From Patescibacteria group bacterium (GTDB lineage: Bacteria > Patescibacteriota > Minisyncoccia > Phycocordibacterales > UBA918): a stretch of DNA of 54,938 nt. Below are positions 36,023-54,938 of the stretch, in pieces (position 1 is the first letter of the stretch; each line of letters starts with the position of its first letter). A program made the position numbers and the translations under genes. The DNA lies in NCBI GenBank assembly GCA_039188945.1, contig JBCCYW010000005.1:1-54938 (forward strand), read 5' to 3'. The notes beneath the pieces are model-generated. The model was not told the DNA's origin and searched no databases. It saw only the letters and a list, made by a program, of their open reading frames with translations.

Positions 36023-36037
36023 TTACGAATCGGTCAA

Positions 36038-36643
36038 CTACCTACCCGTACCAGTCGCAACATACACAAACTCCCACACGACACCGGTATCAGTTTTCTC
36101 TGGTGTGAAGTAGTAGGTATGTATTCTATTAAGATGATCTGTCTCGATTGCAATAGCCGGCGCGATCACCTCAGTGACACCAGCCATTTCTAGTGCGAGA
36201 CGTTGATGTAAGACGACATCAGTAACCTGAATAGTTTGATCTGAGTCGGTTATATTGAGAAGTTCAAAAAGTGCCTGGTATAAACCTGGATCAAACCAGA
36301 TAATTAACCCTTCTGGAGGTGCTACCTTCGGTTGAATAGTAATACTCGTTACGAGATCCGGGTGAGACAACACAATACCTTCAGAGAGCGAAACGTCACC
36401 AAAACGAAACTGTCCTGCAGCACCCACAGCTACTGTGGTATCACCCGCAGTTAGCGTTACCGCGGCGACCGACTCAGCAGTAACCGGGTCGAGTACAATC
36501 CCACTGATTGGGACCCTGTCTGACTGCATCACTACATCGGTCGGCGTGGTCATGCGCGTGTCATAGAATATTAGCCAGGCACTGATCGCTAAAAGAACGC
36601 CAAGCGCAATGACACCACCCTTAATGATTGTTTGTTTTTTCAT
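36038..36643 (-). CDS. membrane-anchored hypothetical protein (201 aa) with carboxypeptidase-regulatory-like beta domain
   Basis: Start trimmed to the ATG at 36643 (MKKQTIIKGGVIALGVLLAISAWLIF). Overlaps the upstream gene by 23 nt. ISGIVLDPVT...AAGQFRFGDV pattern. Confidence 0.6.
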   Translation of the reverse strand: MKKQTIIKGGVIALGVLLAISAWLIFYDTRMTTPTDVVMQSDRVPISGIVLDPVTAESVAAVTLTAGDTTVAVGAAGQFRFGDVSLSEGIVLSHPDLVTSITIQPKVAPPEGLIIWFDPGLYQALFELLNITDSDQTIQVTDVVLHQRLALEMAGVTEVIAPAIAIETDHLNRIHTYYFTPEKTDTGVVWEFVYVATGTGR

Positions 36644-39600: not shown

Positions 39601-39773
39601 TTAAGATCAGCTGGATTGCCCGTTCCCCCATCACCAGTATTATCACCACCGGTAGTGACGTTTGTGAGCAGTTGAAAATAATCATCTCCAGACGGTGCAG
39701 CAGCCAATAACGGCAACGCAGCCACGCTCGATACCAACACACCAAACACAAAACTGATGACAATCGCTCTCAT
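36621..39773 (-). CDS. large cell-surface protein (1050 aa): signal peptide, cohesin-like N-domain, SbsA/Big_5-like Ig domains, Cys repeats, C-terminal TM anchor
   Basis: MRAIVISFVFGVLVSSVAALPLLAAA signal. YVGQSFTTTMQIVSAGALSANIWIDYD...GSFGTVRFTANEP (cohesin-like pattern). PPFADSISPTDGATGIPVTSNVTFNL and APQVTSRSPGAGSAGNAVSTDISVTV (Ig-like). C-terminal IPFDLLLVLLLCYLVLRSYQRHK. Confidence 0.85.
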   Translation of the reverse strand: MRAIVISFVFGVLVSSVAALPLLAAAPSGDDYFQLLTNVTTGGDNTGDGGTGNPADLNYYYVGQSFTTTMQIVSAGALSANIWIDYDTATTTASNLTTGSFFDTWSGQTINTSEPTSFGGSRILSTGLNFINPVNSVGTGSFGTVRFTANEPTAAAYGTGSPGLLDINIGTIGDTTESNISVSSIDVLDDAEDFQFHIWADTVPPFADSISPTDGATGIPVTSNVTFNLRDTLNGQGDLNGVGTGVNTSEPPGIITLNGVDETDDSSFSCSGIWGSNLCAVTVNPDPPSGQAGDPRNFEYNTTYTLVVSGFEDFASTDQDSLGDANGPNAMVATTTTFTTEGDAVAPQVTSRSPGAGSAGNAVSTDISVTVEDRISYPSGASGIGLVTSSCSIDVGSPSVATTTYTYISPDVTVASTTYGVQFTINPTIDFSENETVTVIVRDCVDRQGNVMVTDTYTFGTTDGSRPYVDELDPADDAFVAASGTISFHIKDDGVGVNLNETVVYVNGTYYTNGGGAGQVTTTGTRITYTSSLDFTGGNYAGDTTALTGTANDYSFVIDPQNDFVAGESIPILIYTEDVNGNVMEREVVGVVAAVNGASFCGATTTWNGTACVAVIDGSTFCGASSTWNGTSCEGVATAGSAFCGASTTWDGVSCISAISGDGFCGTNTSWNGTTCVSTITSTGRSGGGGSNLLGSITFAGVASPYATVYIREEGLIIATAEADASAVFEIEVDDLKKGEYNLSLFAEDTDGRLSSSLAYQFMLEQRADGRITDIYLPPTMDVGPVITQQGGLVTVTGRSVPDSTITVGINADQEQFQFTDVDESGAYNFTIDTSRYEVEEYQVRVRSATAEAFSAFSKQRTFVVEESLIIVNEGFATCVGDECLTEYIFVPQTATVTVTERTDPAPFTVLLRNYIEIFNGDYYLEFIELGDVPIERYEVVELPKTAIPESLNGWTEAVSPYRLADQALESVVYVRGFTADGEVYVVQLDLSLFEDSGAAWYDPASGTTAIYYLRYIPFDLLLVLLLCYLVLRSYQRHKEKNQHEKTNNH
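37743..37985 (-). repeat. four tandem ~20-aa Cys-pair repeats, FCG(A/T)xT(S/T)W(N/D)G(T/V)xC, within the 1050-aa protein
   Basis: SFCGATTTWNGTAC / TFCGASSTWNGTSC / AFCGASTTWDGVSC / GFCGTNTSWNGTTC (aa ~599-676). Confidence 0.85.
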
Positions 39774-39774
39774 A

Positions 39775-40557
39775 CTAATTATCTCCTTGGGCGTCCAAGT
39801 TATCGAGCATGATTGATAAGTCGACCGAATTCACTGCTGTATCTTGATTGAGGTTGGCCCGAATCCCATTACCAGTGGCATCACTATCATCCAACACAGC
39901 GAGAATTGCAGAGAGATCAACCGAGTTCACCACATCGTCACCTAGTGTAGCGGCCGAGTCACCGGCTCCGTTTACATCGCCTGCCAACAATCGAATGCTG
40001 CCACGAGTGGTTGAGGCGTAATCGGTTGTAGAAAAATTGAGTGTCGTACTACCAAAACCAATCGGCACATCTTGCAGTACCCGGGTAAGGTGCTGACTTC
40101 CTTTAAAACCAATATCGTACGTTCCAGTAGCAACACTCGTGAGGTCGATGTCAGCAAGATATGTACCATCAACTGATGTGGTGGCTAAGGCGGTCGTAAA
40201 TAGCACCACGTCGTCTGCGTCGTCAGCTGTGCGAATAGACAAGTAGAACACAGTGTCATCATTGGTCTGCTCCACTCCGACACGACCCTCTGGCACTGCA
40301 TATTGAATTGTTACCGTCGATGAACCAGTTGGAGCGACATAGCTTAGCCACGTCCGACCTTGATCAAGCAGGTAGCTTGCGCTATTGGAGAAACTATTAA
40401 TAGCTTCTCCAATGATAGCCCGGAACTCATAATTAACTGAGCTGCCTGAGAACTCCGTGCCACCAATCTGTTCCTGAGAAAGTTCATATTGCGGACTAGC
40501 TGCCGCTAATGCCGTTATTGGCAAAAAGCAAAAGATAGCGAAAAACCTTCCAATCAT
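39775..40557 (-). CDS. secreted protein with C-terminal dockerin-like duplicated Ca-binding segment
   Basis: Signal peptide MIGRFFAIFCFLPITALAAA. C-terminus GDVNGAGD...DDVVNSVDLSAILAVL and NLNQDTAVNSVDLSIMLDNL (two dockerin-type repeats). Stop lies 1 nt before the next ATG. Confidence 0.7.
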   Translation of the reverse strand: MIGRFFAIFCFLPITALAAASPQYELSQEQIGGTEFSGSSVNYEFRAIIGEAINSFSNSASYLLDQGRTWLSYVAPTGSSTVTIQYAVPEGRVGVEQTNDDTVFYLSIRTADDADDVVLFTTALATTSVDGTYLADIDLTSVATGTYDIGFKGSQHLTRVLQDVPIGFGSTTLNFSTTDYASTTRGSIRLLAGDVNGAGDSAATLGDDVVNSVDLSAILAVLDDSDATGNGIRANLNQDTAVNSVDLSIMLDNLDAQGDN

Positions 40558-40569
40558 ACTGTAATGAAC

Positions 40570-41049
40570 TTATTGAGATACAACATGGGCTTGTAGAGCT
40601 ACGACAGTTTGATCAAGATAAAATAAAACTGACTGCCAAGCTTGATCGTGCTCAAAATCAATCTGAGCCTGTGTATCAATGAGAGCCAACACCTCCGCCC
40701 GATCATTCAATATGGTTTGCAATGCCGAGAGACTATGCACTAACTGCATTTCTTCCCATGGTGAGAGTGCACCGGTTTCCGCTATAGCAACGATATCGGC
40801 GATAGCTGCAGCGTGAGCAATCAAACGTGCGCGAAGCAGCACTGCCTCACCTTCGGTAAGCTGTGCTGCTGAATCAGTATCATATTCATTAAGGAGTGAC
40901 ACGATGTCGTGTGTCTGCGAGGCGACAACACCAGTATAATCAACCTGCACCTGGGATTCATGTACCCAATACACCAACAAAAGACTGGTGGCAGCTACTG
41001 CTACCCCAAGGAAAAAACTGCGCAGGCTAAGGATTGCGGACAAAGCCAT
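40570..41049 (-). CDS. membrane-anchored helical hypothetical protein (159 aa)
   Basis: ATG ORF with an N-terminal TM helix (FFLGVAVAATSLLLVYWV), 12 nt upstream of the dockerin-like gene. Confidence 0.6.
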   Translation of the reverse strand: MALSAILSLRSFFLGVAVAATSLLLVYWVHESQVQVDYTGVVASQTHDIVSLLNEYDTDSAAQLTEGEAVLLRARLIAHAAAIADIVAIAETGALSPWEEMQLVHSLSALQTILNDRAEVLALIDTQAQIDFEHDQAWQSVLFYLDQTVVALQAHVVSQ

Positions 41050-41127
41050 AATTGCGTTACGTACTCAAACTATAGCATACACAGCACTCTGCACAGGAAG
41101 CAATTGAGTTCGGTACAATACTTATAT

Positions 41128-41616
41128 ATGAATAAATACGCAATCATTGTTACCCTTAGTATAGTAGGGATTAGTATTATCGGGAGCTGGTACGCTACCC
41201 ACCTAACCGACCAATATGTAGCTGCCGTAGAAAATGAGGTAGAGGCTTTAGAAGCGACGCTTGAACAAGCTATGACGCTACTTGGTGAAACAGCGGTCGA
41301 TACTGCTGCAGCTCACCAACTACATGTAAAGATGCATGGACATCTCAACACTATCAATGACCACCACCCAGCAGTAGGACTAACTGGATACACCGAAGAA
41401 CATACCATGAGCCTACAGGCAGCTTTAGAAAAATTAGAGGAGTTTCTGTTAACTCACGGCGATACGCTCCAAGCGCTTGATGAAGCAGCCGAAACTCAGC
41501 ATGTAGAAAACCAATTAGCTAAAAACAATAGTTCGGGAGCGCAACTCTTTCGCAAAATATCGAGCGGCATTGATGACACCAAAAACGTCATCACCGGTCA
41601 CATTGAAGATGTGTAG
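41128..41616 (+). CDS. membrane-anchored helical hypothetical protein (162 aa)
   Basis: Start trimmed to the ATG at 41128 (MNKYAIIVTLSIVGISIIGSWYA). Same size and TM-plus-helical layout as the divergent 159-aa gene. Confidence 0.6.
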   Translation: MNKYAIIVTLSIVGISIIGSWYATHLTDQYVAAVENEVEALEATLEQAMTLLGETAVDTAAAHQLHVKMHGHLNTINDHHPAVGLTGYTEEHTMSLQAALEKLEEFLLTHGDTLQALDEAAETQHVENQLAKNNSSGAQLFRKISSGIDDTKNVITGHIEDV

Positions 41617-41622
41617 AAAACA

Positions 41623-41859
41623 CTACTTTGTGAGTTGCCACACCGTGTAGAGGGCACTGACTGTTGCAAGTAAAAATACAAGCGACTGCGTGGTGCTGTC
41701 GACTGACCAATCAAAGTATCGGACGGAGTCGTACCAGACATAAATCACGAAGGTCAGAGCCAAACCGGCAAAAGCCTGACGGCCACGTATAACTGCTCGG
41801 ATACACAAGATTGCGATCACTACTTCAAGCGCAATAGCGCTTAGTTGTATGTATTCCAT
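41623..41859 (-). CDS. small 3-TM membrane protein (78 aa)
   Basis: ATG ORF 21 nt downstream of the giant-gene stop, on the same strand. Confidence 0.6.
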   Translation of the reverse strand: MEYIQLSAIALEVVIAILCIRAVIRGRQAFAGLALTFVIYVWYDSVRYFDWSVDSTTQSLVFLLATVSALYTVWQLTK

Positions 41860-41880
41860 ATATTCTCATCGTACCAGACT

Positions 41881-44800
41881 CTATTCTATTGACTCATCAC
41901 TGTCCCCGATTGGATCGACTGGTTCAGACTCCTCTTCAGAGACCGAGTCGTCTTCGACTGGCTCAGGATCAACTTCTGAATCATCGACTGTATCTTCTGG
42001 TTCGGGATCAACTGATTCTTCAACTTCCTCATCGACGGTTGGCGCACTGTCTTGATCTTCGGACGTAACATCATCAATCACATCTTCGACTGGCTCAGTA
42101 CTGGTGGCGGCATCATCGTCTACTGACGATTCGTTCGTAGTAGAGGCTGTGGTGGAACTGGTTGCATCTTGATCAGGGTTAGTTGGTTCTGTACTACCAC
42201 CGGCAGTATCACTGGTAGCAAAAGTTTCGGTATCAGTATTAGTCTCTGTCGTATCACTATCACCAGTATTATCGGTACTAATTGGCTCATTCGACTCACT
42301 ACCACACTCTCCTGGGTACGATACTAACTCACCACCAACTTCCACTTTGATACAATATGGCGCACCCAAGTCGTCGTAGAACGTAATACCACTTGGAGAG
42401 GCTTCGCTGCCGACCGTTAGGTTATCAACCACAATACGCTCAGCAAACAAATCATTAACGTATATCGCGGCATTAGCAACTTGGACACCCAGGTGCTCTA
42501 AGCGTGCGAGGACCAAATCAGCAATTCGATCCGCTAACTGCCCAATACTATCGGTGCTTGTGTCACTTGCTGCCAGCAGCAAGGACTCAGTGGACTGGGT
42601 ATCGGCTAGAAAACGGTCTACACCAATAGCGAGCTTACTCGCTGGGTCATTTTCAACCAACATCATAATGGTGTCGGCTGGGACGGTAGTAGTACCAATT
42701 AACTCAGCGAAGGCTGTGCTGGTTGCTCCCGTTGTCTCGTATGACTCAAGTGCGACACCAATCACATGATCAGTCGCTTTAGTTGAGCGCATCGCAACCC
42801 CTGGTGTCGTACTTGAAAGTGTAATGCGATCACCAGCGGCAATGACACCGTTATCAAAGTTAACCTTCACCGGCACCCGTCCAGAGAGCGCAACTGGACG
42901 CACTGCTTCTTCATTAAACTCATCTGGATTCACTGCGTACCCCATCACCATTGATGGAGCGGTTGAAATCACTCCAAGCTTATACGACTCATCGCCAGAT
43001 TCTGCTCGAGTGACATGCGTGACTGGATTGTCAGGATCCATCATAACGACCTCGCCAGCCTCGAGTGTCTCATCATCAGTCAAGAAGTTTTCCGCGAGGT
43101 CGAAGTTGTTGGCGTTAATTGCTCCATCAGCATCAATCTGACCAGTTGGAGTATTACACGTATCACCGGCACCATCTTTGGCACAAATACCCCCCACTAC
43201 CGTTAATTCTTCATCTGGAGAGGTGTCGTAAATACCAATAAAGCCAGTATCTCTAAGTGTCATCATGACGATATCATTGGCAGCAAACTGGAGATCATGT
43301 GTAGTTTCAGTACCAATAATTAACGAATTGGACACTGAGCTAGTGAAGCGCGTACCTGATGACCCTTCTAGACCAATATACGCCAAAGTGGTTGCGCCAT
43401 CTTGTCTAAAGACAATCCCCGGATTATCATTTTCGTTATTGTTGTCGGTGTCAGCTTCAATTGTTAACACAGAATCTCCAGCCGTTTCACTACTAATATG
43501 TAGGAGTGAAACTGGATCAACGTGCCCGATCGCGACTTCTTGGTCAGTGTTATCGATGGTCATGGCAACGGCATTATTGGTACCAAATTGCGTTCGCCAT
43601 GTATTGGTAGTACCAATCAAGAGTGAATTTGGTAGCGAACCAGTAAATGTATCGTTTTGACCTGCCTCGAGTCCGATAAATGCACCGATAGTGCCACCAT
43701 CTTGCTCAAGGATAATACTTGGGTTGTAGTCATCGTTAGTATTATCAGTGTCAGCCACAATTCTAAGGACAGCATCACCATCAGTTTCTCCAGAAATAGT
43801 CAAAAGATCGCTTGGAGTGGTCGTACCAATACCCACGTTTCCACCACCCTCAAAGTGTGCGACCACGCTTGCCATATTAAGATCACCACAATCACCGCCG
43901 CCACAGGTATCACCCCAGATTGAGAATGAATCTACAGAGTCATCCGGAATGTAGAGTCGCAAGTCTGACACGCCACCACTTTGCAGTGGCGCAAAAATAG
44001 CGGCGTCGTTCGTAAAGAACCCATCGGTGTAGCCGGTAATCACATCATTGATCCAAGAAGTATTGGTATTACCAAGTTGCAGACGATTAGTCATCGTAAC
44101 TGTACTTGAAGAGTTAACTTGCATCGCTAAGTCTCCACCAACCGTTGTGTTGTCTTGCTGTACGTAGAAGTTGATCTGCGTAGCAGCATTTCCCGCACTG
44201 GTGTTTCCACCAATATTTACCAGGTTATCAGTTGCGTTTGAAACTGCTGTTAAAAGTGTGAAGTTTTCTTCCTGATTATCGTAATGTGGTACACCAAAGC
44301 GCAAGTTCTTTTGGGTATCGTCAGGACGCGCATTGGTATCGAGTTGCGAGCCAGCTAGAATTCCCCACGAACCAGAGCCAGAACCATTGGTCACATCAAG
44401 CATCGCCCCTGGACTGGTGGTGCCAATACCGAGTCGGCCACCGTCAGCGATCAACACATTACCAGTGTTACCGAAGTATACATCAGTAAACTCACCATCA
44501 GTCGTACCAAAACCAGTTACCGGTCGGCCACCGATCGCCAGATTATCTTCATGAGAAACCAGGGCAGAATAATCAGTAGTACTGGCACCCATATTGAAAC
44601 AGATTTGGTCATATGCAGAGCAAGCACCTATCGACACCTGCCCTGTCCAACCATTAGCATTCTGATAGCCCATAAAGAATGGGCGCGAACCATTTTGTTC
44701 TTCTGCTGCAATCGTCAGCGTTGGACTGTACCCATGAGGCGCCGTTGTGACCGGACTGACCAACCCATTATTGATAAAGACCTGGTTATTGGTATACGAA

Positions 44801-47800
44801 CCATCGTTATCTACATGCAACTGACCAGTTGGTGAAATGGTGCCAATACCAACATTGCCATCGTAGGTGATATTTAAGATATCTTGCGAGACATTGTAGC
44901 CAAAACTGAAGTATCGATCGGCCGGAGTCGCAGAAGGATTATTTTTGACGTTAAACCGACTGTAGTCCCCGCGTTCGTCACGGTTGAAAATTAACCCTGT
45001 CTCCCCACCCGGCGTTGAAAGCTCGATCTGATGATCACCAAAGTCCCAGTCAATAATTCCGCCACTGACCACCAGCGCATCACCCGAATCAACCGTCGTC
45101 GTACCGACTCCCAGTCCGCTACTTGGAATACTTACATCACCTGTAGAACCATCTATGCGTAACGCTGTGGTACCAGAGTTATCACGATCAATGAGGAAAT
45201 TACCAGCTGCACCATCAAATGTCAGCCGACCTTGAGCATCTTGTGATTTCAGACGAACATCTACCCCACCGGCTCGCAGAAGTCGGAGCTGCGCATTGGT
45301 CGTATCATAAATATCAAGATCAATATCCAGTTCAGTCGTAGTTGTACCAATCGCTACTCCCCCTGTGTCGTAATAGATATCACTACCATTTTGAGTCCAT
45401 AAACCAGAGATACCCTGGACAGAAGTTGACGCTACCCACTGTGTTCCTGTACCAGTACTCTGCAAGATATAGCCGGCCGGTCCAGCATTATCCTGGCTGT
45501 CATAGTACGCTCCAGTAACATATAGATCACCGTCAACCGTCAACGTCCTCGATGCACTAGTAGTACCAATCGCAACACCATCATTCAGGCCATCGATGGT
45601 CATTAACTGATCAGCGCCGTTAAAGAAAGTGAAATCATTTGTACCGGTAGTAATAAACGACATATCACCGCCAAGCGCCTGCACGTTGTTGTCTGATAGC
45701 TGCAAGTAATTGACTCCGATGGTGCGTAATCCATCTACATAGGTTCGATCATCCGGACCAATATACAAGATTTTTTCCTGGTCATAACTCCGAGAGACAG
45801 AGAAATAGTCACTCGTTCGAGTATACGTACCGTCCTGATTTGCCATAATCGCCAGTTCCGTTGCTTCACTAGTATCGCCAACTACGCTCAGCCTCGCGCT
45901 CGGTGTAGTAGTACCGATTCCTACGTTGCCGTCAGTAGCAAGGTACAGTCGATCAATGATATTGTTTGAACCAAACGATATCGCATTACCAGCCTCAGCC
46001 CTGATCCGCCAGTCAGCGGTAGCAGTACTATCACTCGTACCCAAGGTACCAATTTGGTATCCACCCGGGTTAAAGAAAGCTAGGTTGCCCTGCAGTGTCA
46101 GTGGCGCCGCTACTGTTGAAGTGCCAATACTTACATTACCAAGATCGTAGTAGATATCGTTGCCATTCTCGGTCCAAAGACTACTTGCAGCACTAAACCC
46201 AAGGGTTGAGGTAGCAACCCACTGCGTTCCTGTTGCAGTCGACTGCAGGATATAGCCCGGTGTGCCAGAACTATATGTACTATCGAATAATGCTCCAGTA
46301 AGTGCCAACGAAGAAATAGTGGTCGTAGCCAGTGAAGATGTACCGATAACAAAGAGGTTGGCGAGGGTGCTCGTACCACTCACAGTAAGTTCTGAGAGTG
46401 TGCTTGACCCAGATACGCTCAACGTATCAAGGGCAAGATTCGTAATATCACCAGTCACGATTGCTTCTTCGTTCCAGAAGAGCTCACCACCCAAGTTGTA
46501 GAGGGCGTACTCCGTATTTTGTGGGGTGGTTGAGGCAAGGTAGGCGCCGCCTTGGACGGTCAACAAGTTGCGCGCGGTGGTAGTCCCAAGCGCAAAGTTA
46601 CCGGAGCCGACGTCCGGCCGGAGGTAGACAAGCTCAGTAGAGTTTTCAATATCAGCCTCTGGGGTGGCCTCGGTCACAGCCAAGTCATACTGCTGTACCT
46701 CACGTTCTGAACCATCAAGGACGTATATCGCCCGGCCGGCTGCCTCAAGTGCGAGACTAGCTGGTAACGTGCCCGGTGCAGTTGACGTACTTTGCGCTAA
46801 ACTGGCCGTGTTAACAGCATACGGTGAATCAAGGTCATACGCATAGACATTGCTATTGTCACCAGCCACAAAGAACAACTGTAGTCCATCAGCACTAAAG
46901 CGTAGACCCCTTGGATCACTCGTTTCGTCGAGTACCGTATCACTTGAGGTCGCAAAGGCAGCAGTTGATACATCGTACGGGGTGCTGAGATCGTACGTTG
47001 CGATTCCAGTTCCGCTACCAGAGACATACATCTGCGTACCACTTGGATTGAATACGGCGGCCCGCGGCTGACCAAATTCGTTCGCCGTCGACGTTGAGTG
47101 CACCAGCGTCGTGGAAGATATATCAAACGCCGCCGCTAAATCATATTCATAAATAGCACTTGGGGTACCCGAGACAATGTACAGTTTTGTACCAGCGGCA
47201 TTAAATGTGAGATCGTTTAGAAGAAACGGACCAGACGGTGGGAACGCCGTACTATTACTGATAGTCATCGTGGTGATGTTATACGGTACTGAGAGGTCAT
47301 ACTCATGCACCGAATTGGTGAAGACGCCGACCATAAATAACTTAGTCCCGTCGTTGTTAAAGGTAATACCAGTTGCTAGACCATCCTCGTCACCAATGCT
47401 GCTGGTAGCCGTCAGAGCGGCAGTTGTAACATCATAAAAACCAGAACCAGGCATAGCCGAAGCCCGCACCGCTACTTCCTCAAAGGCGAGGTCAACCGAG
47501 CGACCGCTCCAGAAGAGATCATCATTAGCATTATAAAGAGAACTTGAGGTGGCACTTGGATCACTACTCGCGATCGTGAGCGCATCGCTAAAGGTAGTCA
47601 GCTGCGCAAAGAGGCTTTCGCTGTAGGCATACAAGCGATCAAAAATACTCACGTCCCCATCAACCGTCAGTGTCGAAGTAGCCGTCGTGGTACCAATTGC
47701 AAGTCGCCCAGCTCCAACCGCTGGGTCTAAGTAAACTAACTCTGTTGAATTCTCAATGTCTTGTAGCTGTACCTCAGTCGCCGTCAGTGAGTATTCATAA

Positions 47801-50800
47801 AAATCTTCTGAGCCGTTATCAACAATGTACACGGCCGTACCAGAGGCATTAAAGTCCATTCCGACCGCAGTGTTAACGTCACTAGCGTCATTGGAACGCG
47901 AAAACGCAGCAGTTGAAATGTCATACGGTGTACTGAGGTCATACTCATAGAGATCACTGTCGCCATCGCCGAGTAAGAACATTTTAGTACCGTCGTTATT
48001 AAACTGATGACCACGAACGTCGCCATTAACAATATCTGTCGTAGTGCTTTGATTAAATACTACTGAAACCAAACTATATGGAGTAGTGAGATCGTATTCC
48101 CGAAGAGTATCTGTACCTGCGCCACTGACGTACAGCTTCGACCCGTCATTATTAAAGGTAACTGTACGAGGATCCGTTTCTGGTGTCGTCGAAACTGACC
48201 GCACATATGAAGTGGTCGTGATGTCAAAGACTATCGAAAGATCATACTCATGTACTTCTCCGAACTCAGTGCCAACTAAAAATAGTTTGGTGCCTGTATC
48301 ATTAAACTCAATATCGTACGGGTCATCTTCTTCTCCAGATAATATGACGCTGGTAGTAGAGAAACTGGCTGTCGAAACATCGTATGCCTCTGATAGATCA
48401 TATTCACGGATACGGCTAGCAGTATCGGTCAGTAAGAACAGTTTAGTACCATCATTACTAAAGCGCATACCTCGGTGCGTGCCATCAAGACCGGTGGTTG
48501 GATTCTGCACGTAGGTCAGGTTATCGAGATTAAATGAACCAGTCGTCACTGTTACAGCGGAAGTAGAGGCCACCTCCTCAAACGCGAGGTCAACTGTGCG
48601 ACCGTCCCAATAGAGATCACTTGCTAAGTTATAGAGCGAGCTTGAGGTCGCGCTTGGGGTGCTGCTGGCAATGGTGAGCGCATCTTCAAAGACTGCCAAC
48701 CGAGCGAAGACACTTTCACCGTAGGCATAGAGCTCATCGTATAGCGACGTTATGCCTGCTACCGCTAACGTGGAGCTTGGCGTACTGGTACCAATTCCCA
48801 CATTCCCATTCGCAGCTACGGTGAGGGTTGAGGTCGCTTCAAGATCACCACCATTATCGAAGCGTAGTGTCTGCCCTTCTAGACCAGCCCCGAGAAGGCT
48901 TAGAAGTTGCTCACCGTTAAAGTGTGCATTTCCACCGAGGTTGTAGAGCGCGTTGCTACTGTTTGCTGGCGTCGTAGACGCTAGATATATGCCACCTTCA
49001 ATGTTTAACAGGTTAGGAGCCTCAGTCATACCAATCGACAAGCGATCGTCACCAGTTGTTGGATTGAGGGTGGTTAACCGGATGTTTTCGTTAAACAGCT
49101 CGACCGGTGCACCACCATACGCTTCAATATTGTCACTGATGAGACCAGAGACATACACCGTGCTTGTCGCCAGGTTTACCCAGACTCCTCGTGGTGCTCC
49201 TTCATCGGCAGAAATATCATGCGAACCGGCTGGCAGCGCAGTGGTGATGTCAAATGGTGCCGATAGGGTGTAGTAATAGATAGTTCCTGCGTCATCGTAG
49301 GCCACGAGCATCTGGTAGCCGTCCTCGGTAAAGTCGACGTCACGCGGATTAGTGGTTGCATCAAGTGTGGTTGAGGCGTTAAAGCCAAGCGTGCTGAGAT
49401 CATACGGTGTCCCAAATGTGTACTCGACGAGGATATCGGAACTAAGACCCACCATATATAGCTTGGTTCCATTATTATTGATCGCGAGACCACCTGGACT
49501 CGTGTCTTCAATAACAATGTGCTCACCAATCCGTGAAGCGGTAGTGATATCAAAGGCACTTGAGAGGGTGTATTCATCAATCGCGTCACCATCGTTTTGT
49601 GAGATGTACATTCGCGTGCCATCACCACTCAGAGCAATACCGACCGCTATATTCGAGTGCGTCTCGATACTGGTTGAAGCCACAAAGCTCGCGCTTGTCA
49701 CATCAAATGCCGTCGCGAGCGAGTACTGGAACACCGTGTCATTTGCGGATGTACCAAGGCCACCAACCACGTACACCCTAGTTCCGCTGCTGTCGAAGGT
49801 GAAGTCTTCGATGCTATTGGTTTGTCCGCTCGCACTCATACCCACAGCTCGTTCCTCTATCGATACGCCGAATTCTCCCGTCGCTACAAAGCCATCACTA
49901 AACGAAGTAGTGAGAGAACCACCATCCCAGAACAAAGTACCGTCTTGATTAGCGAGCGCGCTCGAGGTGCTTTGCGTTGAGGTAGCCGCGATATAGATAC
50001 CGCCACCGACCGAGAGTGCGTTAGTATCGTTAGTAGTACCGATGCTTAAACGTTCAGACACATATGCTTCACCAATGACTTCGAAGATGGCGTTCGTAGA
50101 TGTTGCAAGGGCACCGATAAGCACGCTATAGGTTGAACTACCAGTGCGAATACTAGAGGTGGCGTTAAAGAATTCCCAGGTGTTATCTGAACTGATACCG
50201 AGCTGGTTACCGTTGAAGTAGAGATCTCCATTGATGTTGTAGAGTGCATCGGTCACACTTTGAGTGGCTGAATCAGCCAAGTAAATACCACCATTAACCG
50301 ACAAGATGTTGTTGGCCGTGGTTTGCCCGAGTGCCAAATAGCCAGTGCCGTTATCCGGATCGAACACCGTAATACTGTTGCCACTTGGTCCGCCGCCGCC
50401 GACAATTTCGGTTTCGGTTGTCGATGCTAGATATTGCGTGATACGGTCCTCACCCACTAAATATAACTTCTCTGCCTGCTCTGACACATAGATCGCACGA
50501 GCTTTTTCTTCTTCATCTGTTACTGCATATTCATTACCGGTCGCCACTGCGGTAGTTATATCGTAGGCAGTTGAAAGCGTATACTCGATAATAAAATCAT
50601 CATCAATCGTTGGGATAGGCGGTGTGCCGTCAATACCGTTATAGAGTAGGAACATTTGCTTTCCACTATCAGAAAATTCGATGTCGTAAATAAGTAAATC
50701 TCCAACTACCGGCTTGCTCACCGAGACGGATGTGCTAGCAGTGAAAGTCAGCGATGTAATGCTATATGGCGTAGTCAGTCTGTATTCGAGTATCTCTTGT

Positions 50801-53800
50801 TCATCAAGTGCCTTCTGTGAGACAACGAACAGCTTAGTACCATCATCATTGATACTCATACCCCGCGGTCGATTTGTTTCATTCAAAACGCTCGAAGAAG
50901 CTGTAAAACTGAGAGTAGTTAAGTCATACGGAGTCGAAAGATCATACTGATTTATTACGTGATCGGTGTCATCAGCGATAAAGAGACTACTCCCATCTGG
51001 ATTAATCGCGATACCAACCGTATCAAGCAAATCTACATCACTAATAGTCGTTGAAGCGGTTATAACAGCAGTGGTGATGTCAAACGGTACTGAGAGATCG
51101 TATTCAAAAATACTACTGTCATCACTTGGTGGTGCAGGAAACGGTAGGCCATCTTCTAAAGAACCAACAGCATACATCTTTGTACCAAGTGGACTGAATG
51201 CAACGTCAACTATTGCGCTGACAGGGGTAATGACATCGTAGGTGGTAGTTGGTGTTAGTGTATTAAAATCAATACCGACAGTGGTTGTCGAGAGAAGCTC
51301 ATCAGCTTCATAAAACGCGGTAGTGAGTTCGCGACCGTGCCAATTTAGGCGGTCATCTACATTGTAGAGCGTGGTACTGGTACTGACTGGTTGTCCGGAC
51401 GCCAATGTCAGTCCACCCGAGAAATAGGTTGAACCAATAACCTCGAGGATTGCATCAGACGTCGTAGCAAGCGCACCAATCAAAACGCTCAGGTCACGTT
51501 CTCCAGTCCGAACACCAGAGCCATTATTGAATAGCTCCCACGTATTACCTTCACCGATACTTAATTGGTTACCATTAAAGTATAATTCCCCACCCAGGTT
51601 GTAGAGGGCGTCGACGATGTTAGCTGGTGTTGTTGAAGCCAGATAGACTCCTCCATTCACACTCAAAATATTTGGGGCTGTGTCCTGACCAATTGCTAAA
51701 CGATCATCACCGTAGTCGGTATCAAGGTAGACCAAGTGCAAATCATCTTCGCGAACACCAGTAGTTTGACCAGTGTTGAACGAATGAATACTATCACCCG
51801 CCCCGAAGCCAGACTGCCCGCCGATCACCAAGAGTGCTTCGTCACCATTTACATAAACGGCTCGGGTCGCATTCTCGTCACTTTGGTGCTCATAGCTTTG
51901 CACCACCCCGCCAGCTGTACTGATGTCATACGCAATAGCCAAGTCACGGAGGTAGGTTGTATCGTTACCGTTATAGGTGACAAATAACTGCTGTCCACCT
52001 TCACCAAAGGCCACATCACGTAATGAAGTAGTATCTAAAAATGTGCTGGTGGCGGTTACGACCAGATCGCTAAACTGATTTGGATCTGGCAGCAGAAACT
52101 CAGTGACTGTATTCTGGATTCTGTCTGCTACATACACTTTGGTATCAAGGTCATTGAGGGTGATACCGACCGGGTCAACACCGTAGGACGCAATACTGAT
52201 CTTTGATTCGAGTGATAGTGTCGAAATATCGTATGGCGTACCGAACTCATACTGAGAGAGTGATTCGTCACCATTAGCACTAACATATACATAGTCACCT
52301 TCTCTACTTAACGCAATACCAACCGCACCGTTACTGAAAGTTTCAACACTAGTGCTAGCCACGAAAGATCGGGAGCTAAGATCAAATGGCGTACTCAAGC
52401 TGTATTGTATGATCTCACTGACTCCCCCCACTTCACCAGTAACATAGAGGTATCGACCATCGCGACTAAAGTCGAAGTCTCCTAAATTATTTGTCTGCCC
52501 GGTCACTGCAATGTCTTCTGCCAAACTCACACTGCTGAGATCAAGACCATACAATGTGGTATCGACATATGTTTCCGTAAAGGCGGTCGTCACCTGCCCT
52601 TCGTTCCAATACAGCAAATCATCTTCAGCGTAGAGAGTATTACTTTGATCGGTTGGCACACTATTATCTAGAGTGATGCCAGACTTTTCGACAGTCAGAC
52701 CAGCACTAGTGAGCTGTCCCTCAAAATCTCCGTCACCAAGAGCAACGATATCATTACCGACAAAGAGATCTGTTAGAACAGTCGCAAACGCTGATTGTAA
52801 GTAGGTAAAGAGTCCAGACGGTGCAGATACACTCGGAATACTGAACGCACCAATACCATTTTCGTCCCCGCCAACGGTGGCGAACATAGCCTCGGCTGTC
52901 GCAAACAAACTGGTTACTCCATTGAGTAATGTGGAGGTATCGTCAAACAATGAGTCGACAAACGTCGGTTCCGTTGGATCGCTCACGTCATACACGGTAA
53001 TCCCCTCATCAATATCATTCGCGGCAATATAGAGATGATCTGCAATGACGGCGGAATCAATCGGTCCAGTAAAGGCGCAGCCGCCGTCCGTATCACTATC
53101 ACAGGCTGCATTTAAAATACCGGTAATGTAGGTTGGGTTTACTGGATCGGTAATATCAAAGATAGAGAAGCCATTTTCCTCACCAGCAGTCACATAGAGG
53201 TAGTCGCCATCAACGGTGAGACTGGTCGGATTACCCATGATTCGGTCACCATCATCGTACACAGATGTCGCATGATACATGTTGCGCGGGTCAGCAATAT
53301 TAAGGACGGCAATCCCATCGTCAGTTTCCCCAGCCACAAACATATAGTCACCGACGATCTCCATATCTTGAGCATTATTCAATGCACAACTACCACTGTG
53401 GGCAGCATCACAAGCAAGATTGTCTAGAGCGTCTACAAATTGCGGATTAGCTGGATCACTAATGTCGATTACCACCACTCCGTCTTCTGAAGAACCGGCT
53501 GAACTCGTAAAGACATAGTCGCCGTGAATCTCTACATCTTGAATATCAATAAACAGACAACCGTCATTTTCTTGCACTAACGCTGAAGCCTGAGCATCAC
53601 ACGCGGAATCATCAAGTGACCCCAATACCGATGGATTTCTTTGGTCTGCAATATCAATAATAGTAATCCCGTTATCAACGGCACTACCCACCACTGCGAT
53701 GTCCCCTTCTACATCCACAGCTCGAGCACCATCGAGCGGTATACTTCCGGTATCGGTAACTGAACTGAGTTCAACCATATTGGCTGGATCTGATACGTCC

Positions 53801-54938
53801 CAGATTGCTAACGCACCATCATCTTCTGATGCAATGTACGCAGTAGTTCCTCGAACCACTAGATCATACGCACCGCCTAAAGCTCTACTCACGGTATCGA
53901 CCCGAGCAGCGACCTGAGTTAAAAGCCCACTTCTACCCATCGTAACAGCAAGGTTTGCTCCGGAAACAGTCACGTCATCAGAGGCTTCGGTTGGCCCACG
54001 TACGGTCAGGCGCTCTTGTACCTCAAGCGTATCGACATCAAGATCACGAACACTTATTTCATCTGAAAAGAGTGTGTCAATCTGGGCAATCATCGTTTCA
54101 ATGGTTGGCACCTTGAAGACTTCCACCCCATCATCTTCGGTACTCGCCACCAACAACACTCCTTCACCAAGCGCGATCGTGCCTGGTCCATCCAGCTCTA
54201 ACTCGTCCGTGTCAGTCAGCGTCCAGATGTGGATCGGATTATCTGGGTCACTAATGTCAAATACCAGGATGGCATCACCATCCCGGGCGGTCACCACCAA
54301 GCGCTCACCAATCCGCTCTAGGCTACTCGGATAGTCAAACACCTCAGCTACCTCAATGTCAACGGGGTACAGTGTCACCGCCTCGACCATCGCTTCTGGA
54401 ACTGATATATCAATCACCGTAAGCTGATCGTCGATACCGCTTGTGACGTACAGCAATCCTTCTTCTGGGTATAGTTCGACATCAGTCACATCATCGAGGC
54501 CGGTAATCGATGAGGCATCAAGTGCACTAATAATGACAGGGTTATCTTTATCCGCTACGTTAATCGCCGTCAGACCATTATCTCCAGCCGTGATGACGTA
54601 CGCGATATCGTCATCAATTTCGATAAACCCGCCACCATCAAGTTCATTACTAACATCATCATAGATCGCTCCGCGCACCGTAAGTTCACCGTTGCCATCG
54701 ATTTCAATAATCCCGAACCCTTCTTCCTCAGACGCATCAGCATTAATTGTATAAATGTAGTCGCCATCTATTTCAATATCAGTAATGTTTGTTAATACAC
54801 AATCATCATTAGGGTTACTAGAAACGAACGCAAAATCACACTGTGCGTCAGAGATACTACTGACGTGTTGTGGGTCAGTACTGGAACTTATATCAAGTAG
54901 TGTAATACCGTCATCATTTTCACCAGCCACCACCAATC
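41881..54938 (-). CDS. giant repetitive surface protein, at least 4351 aa in window (5' end beyond right edge)
   Basis: Single uninterrupted frame from the window edge to the TAG at 41881. Contains LVIVD-type repeats, five propeller-like super-repeats, GNVGIGTTTPS stalk repeats, a C-terminal globular domain and an acidic tail. Confidence 0.9.
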   Translation of the reverse strand, partial: LVVAGENDDGITLLDISSSTDPQHVSSISDAQCDFAFVSSNPNDDCVLTNITDIEIDGDYIYTINADASEEEGFGIIEIDGNGELTVRGAIYDDVSNELDGGGFIEIDDDIAYVITAGDNGLTAINVADKDNPVIISALDASSITGLDDVTDVELYPEEGLLYVTSGIDDQLTVIDISVPEAMVEAVTLYPVDIEVAEVFDYPSSLERIGERLVVTARDGDAILVFDISDPDNPIHIWTLTDTDELELDGPGTIALGEGVLLVASTEDDGVEVFKVPTIETMIAQIDTLFSDEISVRDLDVDTLEVQERLTVRGPTEASDDVTVSGANLAVTMGRSGLLTQVAARVDTVSRALGGAYDLVVRGTTAYIASEDDGALAIWDVSDPANMVELSSVTDTGSIPLDGARAVDVEGDIAVVGSAVDNGITIIDIADQRNPSVLGSLDDSACDAQASALVQENDGCLFIDIQDVEIHGDYVFTSSAGSSEDGVVVIDISDPANPQFVDALDNLACDAAHSGSCALNNAQDMEIVGDYMFVAGETDDGIAVLNIADPRNMYHATSVYDDGDRIMGNPTSLTVDGDYLYVTAGEENGFSIFDITDPVNPTYITGILNAACDSDTDGGCAFTGPIDSAVIADHLYIAANDIDEGITVYDVSDPTEPTFVDSLFDDTSTLLNGVTSLFATAEAMFATVGGDENGIGAFSIPSVSAPSGLFTYLQSAFATVLTDLFVGNDIVALGDGDFEGQLTSAGLTVEKSGITLDNSVPTDQSNTLYAEDDLLYWNEGQVTTAFTETYVDTTLYGLDLSSVSLAEDIAVTGQTNNLGDFDFSRDGRYLYVTGEVGGVSEIIQYSLSTPFDLSSRSFVASTSVETFSNGAVGIALSREGDYVYVSANGDESLSQYEFGTPYDISTLSLESKISIASYGVDPVGITLNDLDTKVYVADRIQNTVTEFLLPDPNQFSDLVVTATSTFLDTTSLRDVAFGEGGQQLFVTYNGNDTTYLRDLAIAYDISTAGGVVQSYEHQSDENATRAVYVNGDEALLVIGGQSGFGAGDSIHSFNTGQTTGVREDDLHLVYLDTDYGDDRLAIGQDTAPNILSVNGGVYLASTTPANIVDALYNLGGELYFNGNQLSIGEGNTWELFNNGSGVRTGERDLSVLIGALATTSDAILEVIGSTYFSGGLTLASGQPVSTSTTLYNVDDRLNWHGRELTTAFYEADELLSTTTVGIDFNTLTPTTTYDVITPVSAIVDVAFSPLGTKMYAVGSLEDGLPFPAPPSDDSSIFEYDLSVPFDITTAVITASTTISDVDLLDTVGIAINPDGSSLFIADDTDHVINQYDLSTPYDLTTLSFTASSSVLNETNRPRGMSINDDGTKLFVVSQKALDEQEILEYRLTTPYSITSLTFTASTSVSVSKPVVGDLLIYDIEFSDSGKQMFLLYNGIDGTPPIPTIDDDFIIEYTLSTAYDITTAVATGNEYAVTDEEEKARAIYVSEQAEKLYLVGEDRITQYLASTTETEIVGGGGPSGNSITVFDPDNGTGYLALGQTTANNILSVNGGIYLADSATQSVTDALYNINGDLYFNGNQLGISSDNTWEFFNATSSIRTGSSTYSVLIGALATSTNAIFEVIGEAYVSERLSIGTTNDTNALSVGGGIYIAATSTQSTSSALANQDGTLFWDGGSLTTSFSDGFVATGEFGVSIEERAVGMSASGQTNSIEDFTFDSSGTRVYVVGGLGTSANDTVFQYSLATAFDVTSASFVASTSIETHSNIAVGIALSGDGTRMYISQNDGDAIDEYTLSSAFDITTASRIGEHIVIEDTSPGGLAINNNGTKLYMVGLSSDILVEYTFGTPYDLSTLGFNASTTLDATTNPRDVDFTEDGYQMLVAYDDAGTIYYYTLSAPFDITTALPAGSHDISADEGAPRGVWVNLATSTVYVSGLISDNIEAYGGAPVELFNENIRLTTLNPTTGDDRLSIGMTEAPNLLNIEGGIYLASTTPANSSNALYNLGGNAHFNGEQLLSLLGAGLEGQTLRFDNGGDLEATSTLTVAANGNVGIGTSTPSSTLAVAGITSLYDELYAYGESVFARLAVFEDALTIASSTPSATSSSLYNLASDLYWDGRTVDLAFEEVASTSAVTVTTGSFNLDNLTYVQNPTTGLDGTHRGMRFSNDGTKLFLLTDTASRIREYDLSEAYDVSTASFSTTSVILSGEEDDPYDIEFNDTGTKLFLVGTEFGEVHEYDLSIVFDITTTSYVRSVSTTPETDPRTVTFNNDGSKLYVSGAGTDTLREYDLTTPYSLVSVVFNQSTTTDIVNGDVRGHQFNNDGTKMFLLGDGDSDLYEYDLSTPYDISTAAFSRSNDASDVNTAVGMDFNASGTAVYIVDNGSEDFYEYSLTATEVQLQDIENSTELVYLDPAVGAGRLAIGTTTATSTLTVDGDVSIFDRLYAYSESLFAQLTTFSDALTIASSDPSATSSSLYNANDDLFWSGRSVDLAFEEVAVRASAMPGSGFYDVTTAALTATSSIGDEDGLATGITFNNDGTKLFMVGVFTNSVHEYDLSVPYNITTMTISNSTAFPPSGPFLLNDLTFNAAGTKLYIVSGTPSAIYEYDLAAAFDISSTTLVHSTSTANEFGQPRAAVFNPSGTQMYVSGSGTGIATYDLSTPYDVSTAAFATSSDTVLDETSDPRGLRFSADGLQLFFVAGDNSNVYAYDLDSPYAVNTASLAQSTSTAPGTLPASLALEAAGRAIYVLDGSEREVQQYDLAVTEATPEADIENSTELVYLRPDVGSGNFALGTTTARNLLTVQGGAYLASTTPQNTEYALYNLGGELFWNEEAIVTGDITNLALDTLSVSGSSTLSELTVSGTSTLANLFVIGTSSLATTTISSLALTGALFDSTYSSGTPGYILQSTATGTQWVATSTLGFSAASSLWTENGNDIYYDLGNVSIGTSTVAAPLTLQGNLAFFNPGGYQIGTLGTSDSTATADWRIRAEAGNAISFGSNNIIDRLYLATDGNVGIGTTTPSARLSVVGDTSEATELAIMANQDGTYTRTSDYFSVSRSYDQEKILYIGPDDRTYVDGLRTIGVNYLQLSDNNVQALGGDMSFITTGTNDFTFFNGADQLMTIDGLNDGVAIGTTSASRTLTVDGDLYVTGAYYDSQDNAGPAGYILQSTGTGTQWVASTSVQGISGLWTQNGSDIYYDTGGVAIGTTTTELDIDLDIYDTTNAQLRLLRAGGVDVRLKSQDAQGRLTFDGAAGNFLIDRDNSGTTALRIDGSTGDVSIPSSGLGVGTTTVDSGDALVVSGGIIDWDFGDHQIELSTPGGETGLIFNRDERGDYSRFNVKNNPSATPADRYFSFGYNVSQDILNITYDGNVGIGTISPTGQLHVDNDGSYTNNQVFINNGLVSPVTTAPHGYSPTLTIAAEEQNGSRPFFMGYQNANGWTGQVSIGACSAYDQICFNMGASTTDYSALVSHEDNLAIGGRPVTGFGTTDGEFTDVYFGNTGNVLIADGGRLGIGTTSPGAMLDVTNGSGSGSWGILAGSQLDTNARPDDTQKNLRFGVPHYDNQEENFTLLTAVSNATDNLVNIGGNTSAGNAATQINFYVQQDNTTVGGDLAMQVNSSSTVTMTNRLQLGNTNTSWINDVITGYTDGFFTNDAAIFAPLQSGGVSDLRLYIPDDSVDSFSIWGDTCGGGDCGDLNMASVVAHFEGGGNVGIGTTTPSDLLTISGETDGDAVLRIVADTDNTNDDYNPSIILEQDGGTIGAFIGLEAGQNDTFTGSLPNSLLIGTTNTWRTQFGTNNAVAMTIDNTDQEVAIGHVDPVSLLHISSETAGDSVLTIEADTDNNNENDNPGIVFRQDGATTLAYIGLEGSSGTRFTSSVSNSLIIGTETTHDLQFAANDIVMMTLRDTGFIGIYDTSPDEELTVVGGICAKDGAGDTCNTPTGQIDADGAINANNFDLAENFLTDDETLEAGEVVMMDPDNPVTHVTRAESGDESYKLGVISTAPSMVMGYAVNPDEFNEEAVRPVALSGRVPVKVNFDNGVIAAGDRITLSSTTPGVAMRSTKATDHVIGVALESYETTGATSTAFAELIGTTTVPADTIMMLVENDPASKLAIGVDRFLADTQSTESLLLAASDTSTDSIGQLADRIADLVLARLEHLGVQVANAAIYVNDLFAERIVVDNLTVGSEASPSGITFYDDLGAPYCIKVEVGGELVSYPGECGSESNEPISTDNTGDSDTTETNTDTETFATSDTAGGSTEPTNPDQDATSSTTASTTNESSVDDDAATSTEPVEDVIDDVTSEDQDSAPTVDEEVEESVDPEPEDTVDDSEVDPEPVEDDSVSEEESEPVDPIGDSDESIE
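41884..42300 (-). other. 139-aa D/E/S/T-rich low-complexity C-terminal tail of the giant protein
   Basis: SESNEPISTDNTGDSDTTETNTDTE...VDPEPEDTVDDSEVDPEPVEDDSVSEEESEPVDPIGDSDESIE. Confidence 0.9.
43200..46620 (-). other. tail-fibre-like stalk region of the giant protein
   Basis: About ten repeats of the (G)NVGIGTTxPxxxLxV motif, plus GYILQSTGTGTQWV (twice). From memory, this motif is typical of 'tail fiber domain' proteins. Confidence 0.5.
46620..52600 (-). repeat. five tandem ~370-400-aa super-repeats (4-5 blade units plus a stalk/collar segment each)
   Basis: At least 20 blade units with the core (E/Q)Y(D/S/T)L(S/T)xP(Y/F)D(I/V)(S/T)T. Each set is followed by LVYLD..G..RLAIG...LYLASTTP.N...ALYNLGG.L.FNG. 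Confidence 0.85.
52830..54938 (-). other. LVIVD-repeat beta-propeller region of the giant protein
   Basis: Recurrent units such as DVEIHGDYVFTSSAGSSEDGVVVIDISDPANPQFV, DMEIVGDYMFVAGETDDGIAVLNIADPRNM and GDYLYVTAGEENGFSIFDITDPVNPTYI. Confidence 0.75.

Follow-up and report, generated by a model that had tools for sequence, protein, structure and literature searches.

The window analysed here is a 54,938-bp stretch of DNA from a Patescibacteria group bacterium (assembly GCA_039188945.1, contig JBCCYW010000005.1), and an exact-sequence look-up identified it as an entire NCBI contig. Its right-hand part is occupied by one giant gene on the minus strand, the subject of this analysis, which is followed by a gene for a 78-amino-acid (aa) protein and by a series of genes for membrane and secreted proteins. 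The frame of the giant gene is free of stops over 4351 codons, from 54936 to 41884, ends in a TAG codon at 41883-41881 and runs off the contig edge. As the frame reaches the edge and the window is the complete contig, the 5' end of the gene is genuinely absent, and residues are numbered here from the first codon in the window (54936), not from the native N-terminus. An earlier note on this DNA had described a single frame of this length, open at the right edge and with its N-terminus outside the window, that encodes repeats of the LVIVD type, five propeller super-repeats, a fibre-like stalk, a globular domain and an acidic tail. Open reading frame (ORF) analysis and the contig look-up bore out the frame and its missing start, and Pfam, self-similarity and motif searches found every one of the listed modules (Table 1).

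The note had asked for an extension of the contig and had raised the possibility of collapsed repeats or a pseudogene. Repeats within the gene are short and diverged at the DNA level (at most 60 nt, 60-86% identical), and Tandem Repeats Finder reported no tandem arrays, so that collapse during assembly is unlikely. An independent 20,234-bp Logan contig (run SRR22824305) matches window positions 31623-45278 with 2 mismatches, which confirms the last ~3.4 kb of the giant gene, its stop codon and the 78-aa gene. The length of the frame without a stop (4351 codons), the divergence of the repeats and the second assembly together make an artefact or a pseudogene very unlikely. Efforts to recover the N-terminus through the other assembly and through metagenome and genome scans were unsuccessful. 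No other assembly with these genes extends the 5' end, and the Logan contig ends even earlier inside the giant gene. Scanning JGI metagenome contigs with aa 1-350 gave no relative, and scanning GTDB representative genomes with aa 3699-4212 gave the stalk module only, in unrelated phyla, and no orthologue.

Table 1. The giant gene, its modules and the gene that follows it (window coordinates).
Feature	Position	Strand	Basis
Giant ORF, 5' end off contig	41881..54936	-	4351 codons + stop; 458 kDa in window
LVIVD-repeat beta-propeller region, aa 1-735	52732..54936	-	PF08309, self-similarity, repeat motifs
Super-repeat 1, aa 740-1174	51415..52719	-	Self-similarity, motifs; best Lactonase stretch aa 822-947
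Super-repeat 2, aa 1175-1645	50002..51414	-	Self-similarity, motifs
Super-repeat 3, aa 1646-2084	48685..50001	-	Self-similarity, motifs; Pfam SGL aa 1693-1823
Super-repeat 4, aa 2085-2449	47590..48684	-	AlphaFold2 model, BFVD fold matches, homologues
Super-repeat 5, aa 2450-2829	46450..47589	-	Self-similarity, motifs
Fibre stalk, aa 2830-3930	43147..46449	-	GNVGIGT-type motifs, internal duplications, homologous modules
Predicted self-cleavage site, codons F3945/D3946 (NNF|DLAENF)	43099..43104	-	gp12 alignment
gp12-type auto-chaperone core, aa 3946-4095	42652..43101	-	PF11962, profile against PDB, Foldseek
Helical segment and small two-cysteine beta module (GITFYDDLGAPYC...GEC), aa 4096-4212	42301..42651	-	AlphaFold2 secondary structure
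Low-complexity acidic tail, aa 4213-4351	41884..42300	-	Composition
78-aa protein, three hydrophobic segments	41623..41859	-	ORF call; 21 nt after the stop of the giant gene

The part of the giant protein inside the window has an isoelectric point (pI) of 4.05. Its 16 cysteines form 8 close pairs, as in disulfide-stapled extracellular loops, and 4 of these pairs lie in the LVIVD region. That region matches Pfam PF08309 in 3 stretches (E 7.6e-12; 44.8 bits against a gathering cut-off of 20.2) and has no sequence match in the PDB. Seven LVIVD repeats were found by motif search and several further ones by eye. They are arranged in two propeller blocks, the first truncated at the contig edge and the second with about 7 blades (aa ~350-720).

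Downstream of this region are the five super-repeats (starting at aa ~740, 1175, 1646, 2085 and 2450), which are 25-48% identical to one another in self-comparison. Each consists of a collar motif 'LYNLGGELYFNG' ('LYN..G.LYWNG' in super-repeat 1), a propeller and a fibre motif 'xGIGTxxPxxxLxV', and the blades read '...F.NDGTKL...EYDLSTPYDISTA...'. Pfam assigns a Lactonase match (PF10282; E 2.9e-19, 69.9 bits against a gathering cut-off of 21.7), a family of the seven-bladed Lactonase/YncE type. The AlphaFold2 model of super-repeat 4, however, has 20 strands and thus 5 blades (predicted template-modelling score 0.70, core predicted local distance difference test (pLDDT) 82-95), and it reaches template-modelling (TM) scores of only 0.4-0.5 against 7-bladed WD40 and YbhE lactonase structures. 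For super-repeats 1, 2, 3 and 5, the blade motifs likewise indicate about 5 blades each.

The closest relatives of these propellers are found among phages. Against BFVD, the super-repeat 4 model matched Caudovirales proteins with E-values of 5e-26 to 2e-19 at 23-34% identity; the best superpositions had root-mean-square deviations of 2.1-3.5 Å, and one of the matches is annotated as a baseplate wedge subunit. A sequence search with super-repeat 4 gave 1593 relatives, the best of which were ~535-aa proteins of about 10 similar blades (JGI names YncE and YvrE). This family of blade proteins is present on at least 596 viral loci in IMG/VR. On one of these, a 60-kb contig, the blade-protein gene follows genes for head and other virion-structural proteins and precedes a tail-fibre assembly gene and an amidase gene, and the C-terminal end of its product matches tail-fibre PHROGs. 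The fold matches in Caudovirales and the relatives on viral loci together identify the propeller heads of the giant protein as being of the phage receptor-binding type. Phage tail-fibre and baseplate propellers (BFVD A0A6J5NPF0; A0A3G2YRG7 of Lentibacter phage vB_LenP_ICBM2), with the blade consensus 'FKPDGTKMY...EYDLSTAWDIST', belong to the same blade family at 30-40% identity (phmmer E down to 1e-141). The phage proteins stand alone, with ~10 blades and a tail-fibre C-terminal end, whereas the giant protein carries five separate propellers along one chain.

The propellers are followed by the stalk, for which the earlier note had listed tail-fibre motifs of the form GNVGIGTTxP. Such motifs are present, but they are not confined to the stalk, as the first copies already occur in the linkers of the super-repeats: the loose motif has 15 copies between aa 1080 and 3801, 4 of them with an exact GNVGIGT, where 0.2 would be expected from shuffled sequences. 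Self-similarity further revealed internal duplications: a 'GYILQSTGTGTQWV' module is present at aa ~2850-2949 and again at ~3112-3208, and a ~100-aa 'DTDNxN' repeat at aa 3701-3797 and again at 3801-3897. The stalk has no Pfam match and no sequence match in the PDB. Its last module (aa 3699-3930) has counterparts, at ~45% identity, in Flavobacteriia, Rhodothermales, Bacteriovoracaceae, Zhuqueibacterota and Saccharibacteria (loci L004-L018). In Croceitalea sp., the ~100-aa unit 'DTDNxNxxDNP...QDGG' occurs within a series of four adjacent ORFs of ~320-460 aa (L004, 9713-14478), and neither the Croceitalea nor the Saccharibacteria proteins with this module have Pfam domains. Judging from this distribution, the unit looks like an unnamed fibre module that is widely exchanged.

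The globular C-terminal region (aa 3946-4212) is followed by a tail of 139 aa with 50 aspartates and glutamates, 43 serines and threonines, and no lysine or arginine. A word-indexed homologue search with the C-terminal domain yielded 27 relatives. Most of these are C-terminal fragments, 300-550 aa long, and some are named Patescibacteria or Paceibacterota; the tails of the relatives at the equivalent position are acidic, serine/threonine-rich or proline-rich. The two-cysteine motif of the giant protein recurs in 10 of the 27. The alignment has a conserved core, D-x-A-E ... G-V-I-S-T-x-P-G ... P-V-A-L-S-G-R-V-P-V-K-V ... G-D, in which the D, A and E of the first motif are invariant. Seven of the 27 match PF11962 (Peptidase_G2) at E ≤0.01 (best 6.8e-6), and one relative has a precomputed PF11962 assignment. 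PF13884 (Peptidase S74), present in 2 of the 27, was absent from the whole giant protein and from its C-terminal pieces.

Searching the PDB with the single sequence of the domain gave nothing, and it was the family profile that led to gp12, the pre-neck appendage of phage phi29. A profile of 18 relatives matched residues 689-743 of gp12 (6qz9_A) with an E-value of 3.4e-4. In this match, DLAE of the giant protein (aa 3946-3949) aligns with DFAE of gp12, so that F3945|D3946 corresponds to S691|D692 and E3949 to E695. The crystallised cleaved fragment of gp12 (3gqh) begins exactly at the aligned aspartate (DFAEYFE...), and the 'pre-mature' entry 3suc has DFAQ in place of DFAE. An AlphaFold2 model of the C-terminal region (mean pLDDT 73, core above 90) had the same two entries as top Foldseek matches in the PDB (3suc, E 2.2e-5; 3gqh_A, E 3.1e-5, probability 1.0, target-normalised TM score 0.57). 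Sequence profile, fold and D-x-A-E motif thus agree that the C-terminal domain is a homologue of the gp12 auto-chaperone, of the Peptidase G2 type. In gp12, this domain is cut off once the protein has folded, and chains that lack it aggregate (PMC3357383). By homology, self-cleavage of the giant protein is expected at the F3945|D3946 bond and should depend on E3949, giving predicted termini ...AINANNF and DLAENFLTDDETLEAGEVVMMDPDNPVTHVTR and a C-terminal product of 406 aa and 42.6 kDa that includes the acidic tail. The earlier note had left this domain unnamed and had not recognised the combination of domains; the former can now be named as gp12-type, while the latter is still without a match among the 150 best representatives of the family described below.

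The resemblance to phi29 gp12 (3GQH, 3SUC, 6QZ9) extends from the profile match across the cleavage site to the overall arrangement, in that both are elongated proteins of the receptor-binding kind with the chaperone domain at the C-terminal end. The two differ in that identity is only ~17-18% and that the domain of the giant protein is followed by the helical segment, the two-cysteine module and the acidic tail. The passengers differ as well, a propeller-and-fibre chain of more than 3900 aa as opposed to a beta-helix tailspike, and so do the hosts, a cell as opposed to a virion. A second comparison is offered by the S74-type chaperones (K1F endosialidase, T5 pb1 and proteins named 'tail fiber domain-containing protein'), which are likewise self-cleaving trimerisation chaperones at the C-terminal end of a fibre, as predicted for the giant protein. 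S74-type proteins share the GNVGIGT-type shaft motifs, and a Paceibacterota example, included in the 10 relatives with the two-cysteine motif, also has an acidic tail. The chaperone of the giant protein, however, belongs to a different family.

To place the domain in a wider context, the core profile was run with HMMER exhaustively over 1.84 billion cluster representatives. This retrieved 29,322 proteins at E ≤1e-3, of which 24,531 also passed E ≤1e-10. The statistics given here refer to the best 150 of the 29,322, a set that is biased towards proteins with several copies of the domain because ranking was by summed score. Their length ranges from 485 to 6814 aa (median 1868), 21 of them exceed 3000 aa, and the chaperone domain sits a median of 257 aa from the C-terminus. 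Among the 125 that are complete, with a Met start, 82 have a hydrophobic N-terminus, while none of the 150 has an LPxTG motif or a C-terminal hydrophobic segment; the giant protein likewise ends in its acidic tail, with neither a hydrophobic segment nor a sortase anchor (LPXTG). Where a source is named, it is mainly Patescibacteria, with contigs of ~1 Mb in some cases, and the names include 'hypothetical protein' in Patescibacteria, 'Cell wall surface anchor family protein' in Curtissbacteria and 'tail fiber domain-containing protein' in Bacteroidota. Viral contigs of IMG/VR carry the domain as well, at least 114 of them, and some of these contigs have the size of a jumbo phage.

The giant protein is therefore one member of a very large family and not a one-off, and each of its modules is of a known kind. 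Patescibacteria relatives such as KKR50708.1 of Curtissbacteria (2371 aa), as well as MEI7741003.1 (3404 aa, from the metagenome-assembled genome of an unclassified bacterium), resemble it in having the chaperone 250-600 aa before the end, a hydrophobic N-terminus, lengths of up to 6814 aa and, in some cases, LVIVD repeats. Apart from the chaperone, the best 150 share with it LVIVD repeats (24 of 150), a few stalk pieces and, in 2 of 150, the two-cysteine motif. Unlike the giant protein, with its single chaperone copy, most of them have two tandem copies, and super-repeat propellers were found in none of the 150. The combination of LVIVD repeats, five phage-type propellers, shaft, one gp12-type chaperone, two-cysteine module and acidic tail is thus unmatched among the relatives examined. 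Our literature search found no paper in which Peptidase_G2 or the pre-neck appendage chaperone is connected with Patescibacteria, and no experimental characterisation of long Patescibacteria proteins with this domain. Very long surface-protein genes that fragment in assemblies are described for Omnitrophota and other host-dependent bacteria (bioRxiv 10.1101/2023.11.21.568195). Omnitrophota are a different phylum, and the likeness drawn here from that preprint is one of size and lifestyle.

The isoleucyl-tRNA synthetase of the window has relatives at 64-71% identity that are named Paceibacteria, Nomurabacteria, Kaiserbacteria and Paceibacterota, several of them on contigs of 0.6-1.1 Mb, which places the contig in a Paceibacteria-class bacterium of the candidate phyla radiation (CPR) and agrees with the small-genome host proposed in the earlier note. 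The same note had suggested a giant, adhesin-like mosaic protein outside the cytoplasm, a suggestion that gains support from the pI of 4.05, the eight close cysteine pairs and the hydrophobic N-termini of relatives. The named family members are mostly Patescibacteria, and the neighbouring genes encode membrane and secreted proteins without PHROG matches, which argues for a cellular and not a viral protein, built from modules otherwise typical of phage receptor-binding proteins. On balance, we think it probable, with considerable reservation, that the giant protein is a secreted fibre of a Paceibacteria bacterium that trimerises through its gp12-type chaperone, cleaves itself at F3945|D3946 and presents its propellers for multivalent binding.

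Each chain of such a fibre would carry, in order, the LVIVD propellers, the five phage-type propellers (each probably 5-bladed) between segments of shaft, the long shaft and the chaperone. Once exported, three chains would come together by their C-terminal chaperone domains, which would set the register of the shaft and drive its folding as a trimer. The chaperone would then cut itself off, with the glutamate of D-L-A-E as catalyst, and the fragment with the acidic tail would be released. On the mature fibre, numerous propeller heads would be exposed (a trimer would have 15 of the phage type), and these may attach to a host or partner cell by a ligand on its surface, which is probably a glycan.

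Several points weigh against this proposal. The N-terminus lies off the contig, so that export or anchoring of the giant protein itself is suggested by its relatives; the C-terminal model is a monomer, trimerisation being predicted from the likeness to gp12, and ligand binding by the propellers is a prediction as well. The 318-aa C-terminal piece scores 20.3 bits against PF11962 (E 3.9e-4), under the gathering cut-off of 25 bits, and phage capsid decoration proteins, which share the fold, come next among the fold matches of the C-terminal model. Nor does simple disposal of the C-terminal fragment account for its long acidic tail. Finally, 146 of the 150 best representatives have two tandem copies of the chaperone and 4 have three, and the D-x-A-E motif of the internal copies is intact. 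From their sequences, these tandem copies suggest either a multi-site, polyprotein-like self-processing or a structural role that does not involve cleavage. Internal copies with an intact motif mean that the domain may be a retained module for structure or oligomerisation instead of a leaving group. The protein could accordingly be the same fibre with a gp12-like domain that is kept as a trimerisation or structural module and does not cleave itself, in which case the domain, the two-cysteine module and the acidic tail possibly form the end that contacts the cell wall. Besides the tandem copies, which also occur in a Saccharibacteria locus where two of them follow the shared stalk module (L010, 2-4255), this version draws on the fold shared with non-cleaving decoration proteins, on Pfam XM1_gp53 matches in 2 of the 27 relatives and on the extension of 250-600 aa behind the domain in most relatives, which would be odd for a discarded piece. 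We nevertheless regard it as unlikely, if by no means negligible, as the catalytic motif is invariant in the family alignment, is kept in most copies and lies exactly at the gp12 scissile site; this conservation argues for cleavage activity.

The phage affinity of every recognisable module also raises the question of whether the giant gene belongs to a prophage or phage-derived element and encodes the tail fibre of a virion or of a tailocin-like particle. The window does contain the signature of an integrated element, a tRNA-His gene (25041-25114, +) that adjoins and overlaps an ORF for a large serine recombinase of 584 aa (25041-26799 region; Resolvase and Recombinase domains; PHROG integrase, E 4e-28). 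Between 27365 and 31227 follow small genes without Pfam matches, some for basic proteins, at a lower GC content (0.43), and one 155-aa protein (28477-28944, -) matches a small-terminase PHROG (E 1.8e-7); this stretch is possibly a phage remnant. In addition, the small protein with three hydrophobic segments encoded behind the giant gene is of holin size, and PHROGs cover CPR phages poorly. On the other hand, the integrase and the small-terminase-like gene, the nearest phage-type genes, are 13-17 kb away from the giant gene, and the low-GC island is limited to ~26-30 kb. No att-like repeat of the tRNA-His of 12 nt or more was found elsewhere in the window. No capsid, portal, large-terminase, tail or other virion structural PHROG was matched by the tested genes at 29-41.6 kb or by the 78-, 159- and 260-aa genes, all on the contig side downstream of the giant gene. 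The genes between the remnant and the giant gene encode cellular proteins instead, with signal peptides or membrane anchors, besides a NUDIX protein and a HupE/UreJ protein, and family relatives with N-terminal export signals are found in CPR genomes. In our reading, the integrase and small-terminase stretch is a minor integrated remnant, distinct from the giant gene, and we consider a prophage origin of the latter improbable. Least probable to us is that the giant protein is mainly an enzyme, secreted to degrade polysaccharides or cell walls, with catalytic propellers. Several glycosidase families use 5-bladed propellers, and phi29 gp12 degrades teichoic acid. The Lactonase and SGL matches would fit such a role, as would the fact that gp12, the closest chaperone-bearing protein, is a tailspike (PMC3357383). 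No glycosidase, lyase or peptidase family match was found across the 4351 aa, however, and the closest relatives of the propellers are phage fibre and baseplate proteins, not enzymes; the five propellers in tandem rather suggest multivalent binding, that is, avidity.

To our knowledge, host recognition and attachment by CPR bacteria are largely unknown, and work so far has centred on pili. The secreted, self-cleaving fibre that we favour would make one of the largest CPR surface proteins a product of phage receptor-binding parts, probably maturing by way of a phage-style chaperone, and it suggests how bacteria with tiny genomes build fibres that they may use for gripping other cells. It also makes concrete predictions, namely the cleavage site F3945|D3946, the catalytic glutamate E3949 and separable propeller heads. 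As the giant gene is one more member of a large family, the value of the locus is that of an entry point and not of a unique oddity: the core D-x-A-E ... P-V-A-L-S-G-R-V-P provides a sequence handle by which related surface proteins, unannotated and numbering tens of thousands, can be picked out of metagenomes. More speculatively, and with doubt prevailing, CPR bacteria may have domesticated a complete phage receptor-binding machinery, consisting of propeller heads, shaft and self-cleaving gp12-type chaperone, as a 'cellular tail fibre'. If so, the trimer encoded here would exceed 1.3 MDa, and the family of ~29,000 clusters would be a principal, hitherto unrecognised host-recognition apparatus of these episymbionts. 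With heads of the same kind, CPR cells and phages may then compete for one set of receptors, and the tandem chaperone copies of relatives would amount to polyprotein-like self-processing into several fibres.

The 78-aa gene behind the giant gene was predicted in the earlier note as a 3-transmembrane protein and a possible partner. Its three hydrophobic segments and its position were reproduced. A convergent ORF for a 162-aa membrane protein ends at 41616, 6 nt beyond it, which makes the 78-aa gene the last cistron of its unit, and it is probably co-transcribed with the giant gene. This likely co-transcription is the sole link between the two, and a partnership found no support. No Pfam, PHROG or NCBIfam model matches the 78-aa protein, which is alone in its 90% cluster and has no close relative in JGI metagenomes, no dedicated homologue search having been made. 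Downstream of six distant family members, the genes are unrelated to the 78-aa gene and to each other. A role as a phage holin likewise found no support: PHROG and Pfam matches are missing, and the adjoining gene is not one for an endolysin but the convergent one for the 162-aa protein, itself without a significant family match.

Beyond the 78-aa gene follow the convergent gene for the 162-aa membrane protein and, on the strand of the giant gene, genes for another membrane protein (159 aa), a secreted protein (260 aa) and a Big_5/Big_6 protein (1050 aa). The genes next to the giant gene thus form a cluster for cell-envelope proteins, and the cluster has no PHROG matches. The 1050-aa surface protein (36621-39773, -) has a signal peptide, Big_5 and Big_6 Ig-like domains, a C-terminal membrane anchor and four cysteine-rich 'FCGxxTxWNGTxC' repeats. 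The 260-aa protein (39775-40557, -) shows two dockerin-like repeats at its C-terminal end by eye (Pfam Dockerin_1, E 0.25 only), and another surface protein of the cluster might serve as its docking partner. A tail-fibre-like gene has been noted near pam operons in a study of the CPR Pam pilus (bioRxiv 10.64898/2026.03.03.709456). A link of the present locus to that pilus was rejected, as the 260-aa protein alone matches PamT, with 18.8 bits against a cut-off of 240, and no other Pam model in NCBIfam matches the 78-, 159- or 1050-aa proteins.

Across the window, the pI lies at 4.0-4.5 for every protein predicted to be secreted or at the surface and at ~5-6 for most cytoplasmic ones. The acidity is thus specific to exported proteins and not genome-wide, and a halophilic lifestyle was rejected as its cause. 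A probable further surface protein, of 692 aa, acidic and with DUF11 repeats, is encoded at the opposite end of the contig (730-2808, -). The isoleucyl-tRNA synthetase (3292-6783, -) is fused to a histidine-phosphatase domain (PF00300), a fusion present in all listed relatives of the Paceibacteria type. Inside the putative integrated stretch lies a full-length LOOT RNA (Rfam RF03000; 28328-28442, -), with 66.7 bits against a gathering cut-off of 46.4. Next to that stretch, a 922-aa membrane-anchored protein (31468-34236, +) combines a G8 domain with a CEMIP-type beta-helix; both domains are known mainly from eukaryotic proteins, and their pairing looks unusual in a CPR genome.

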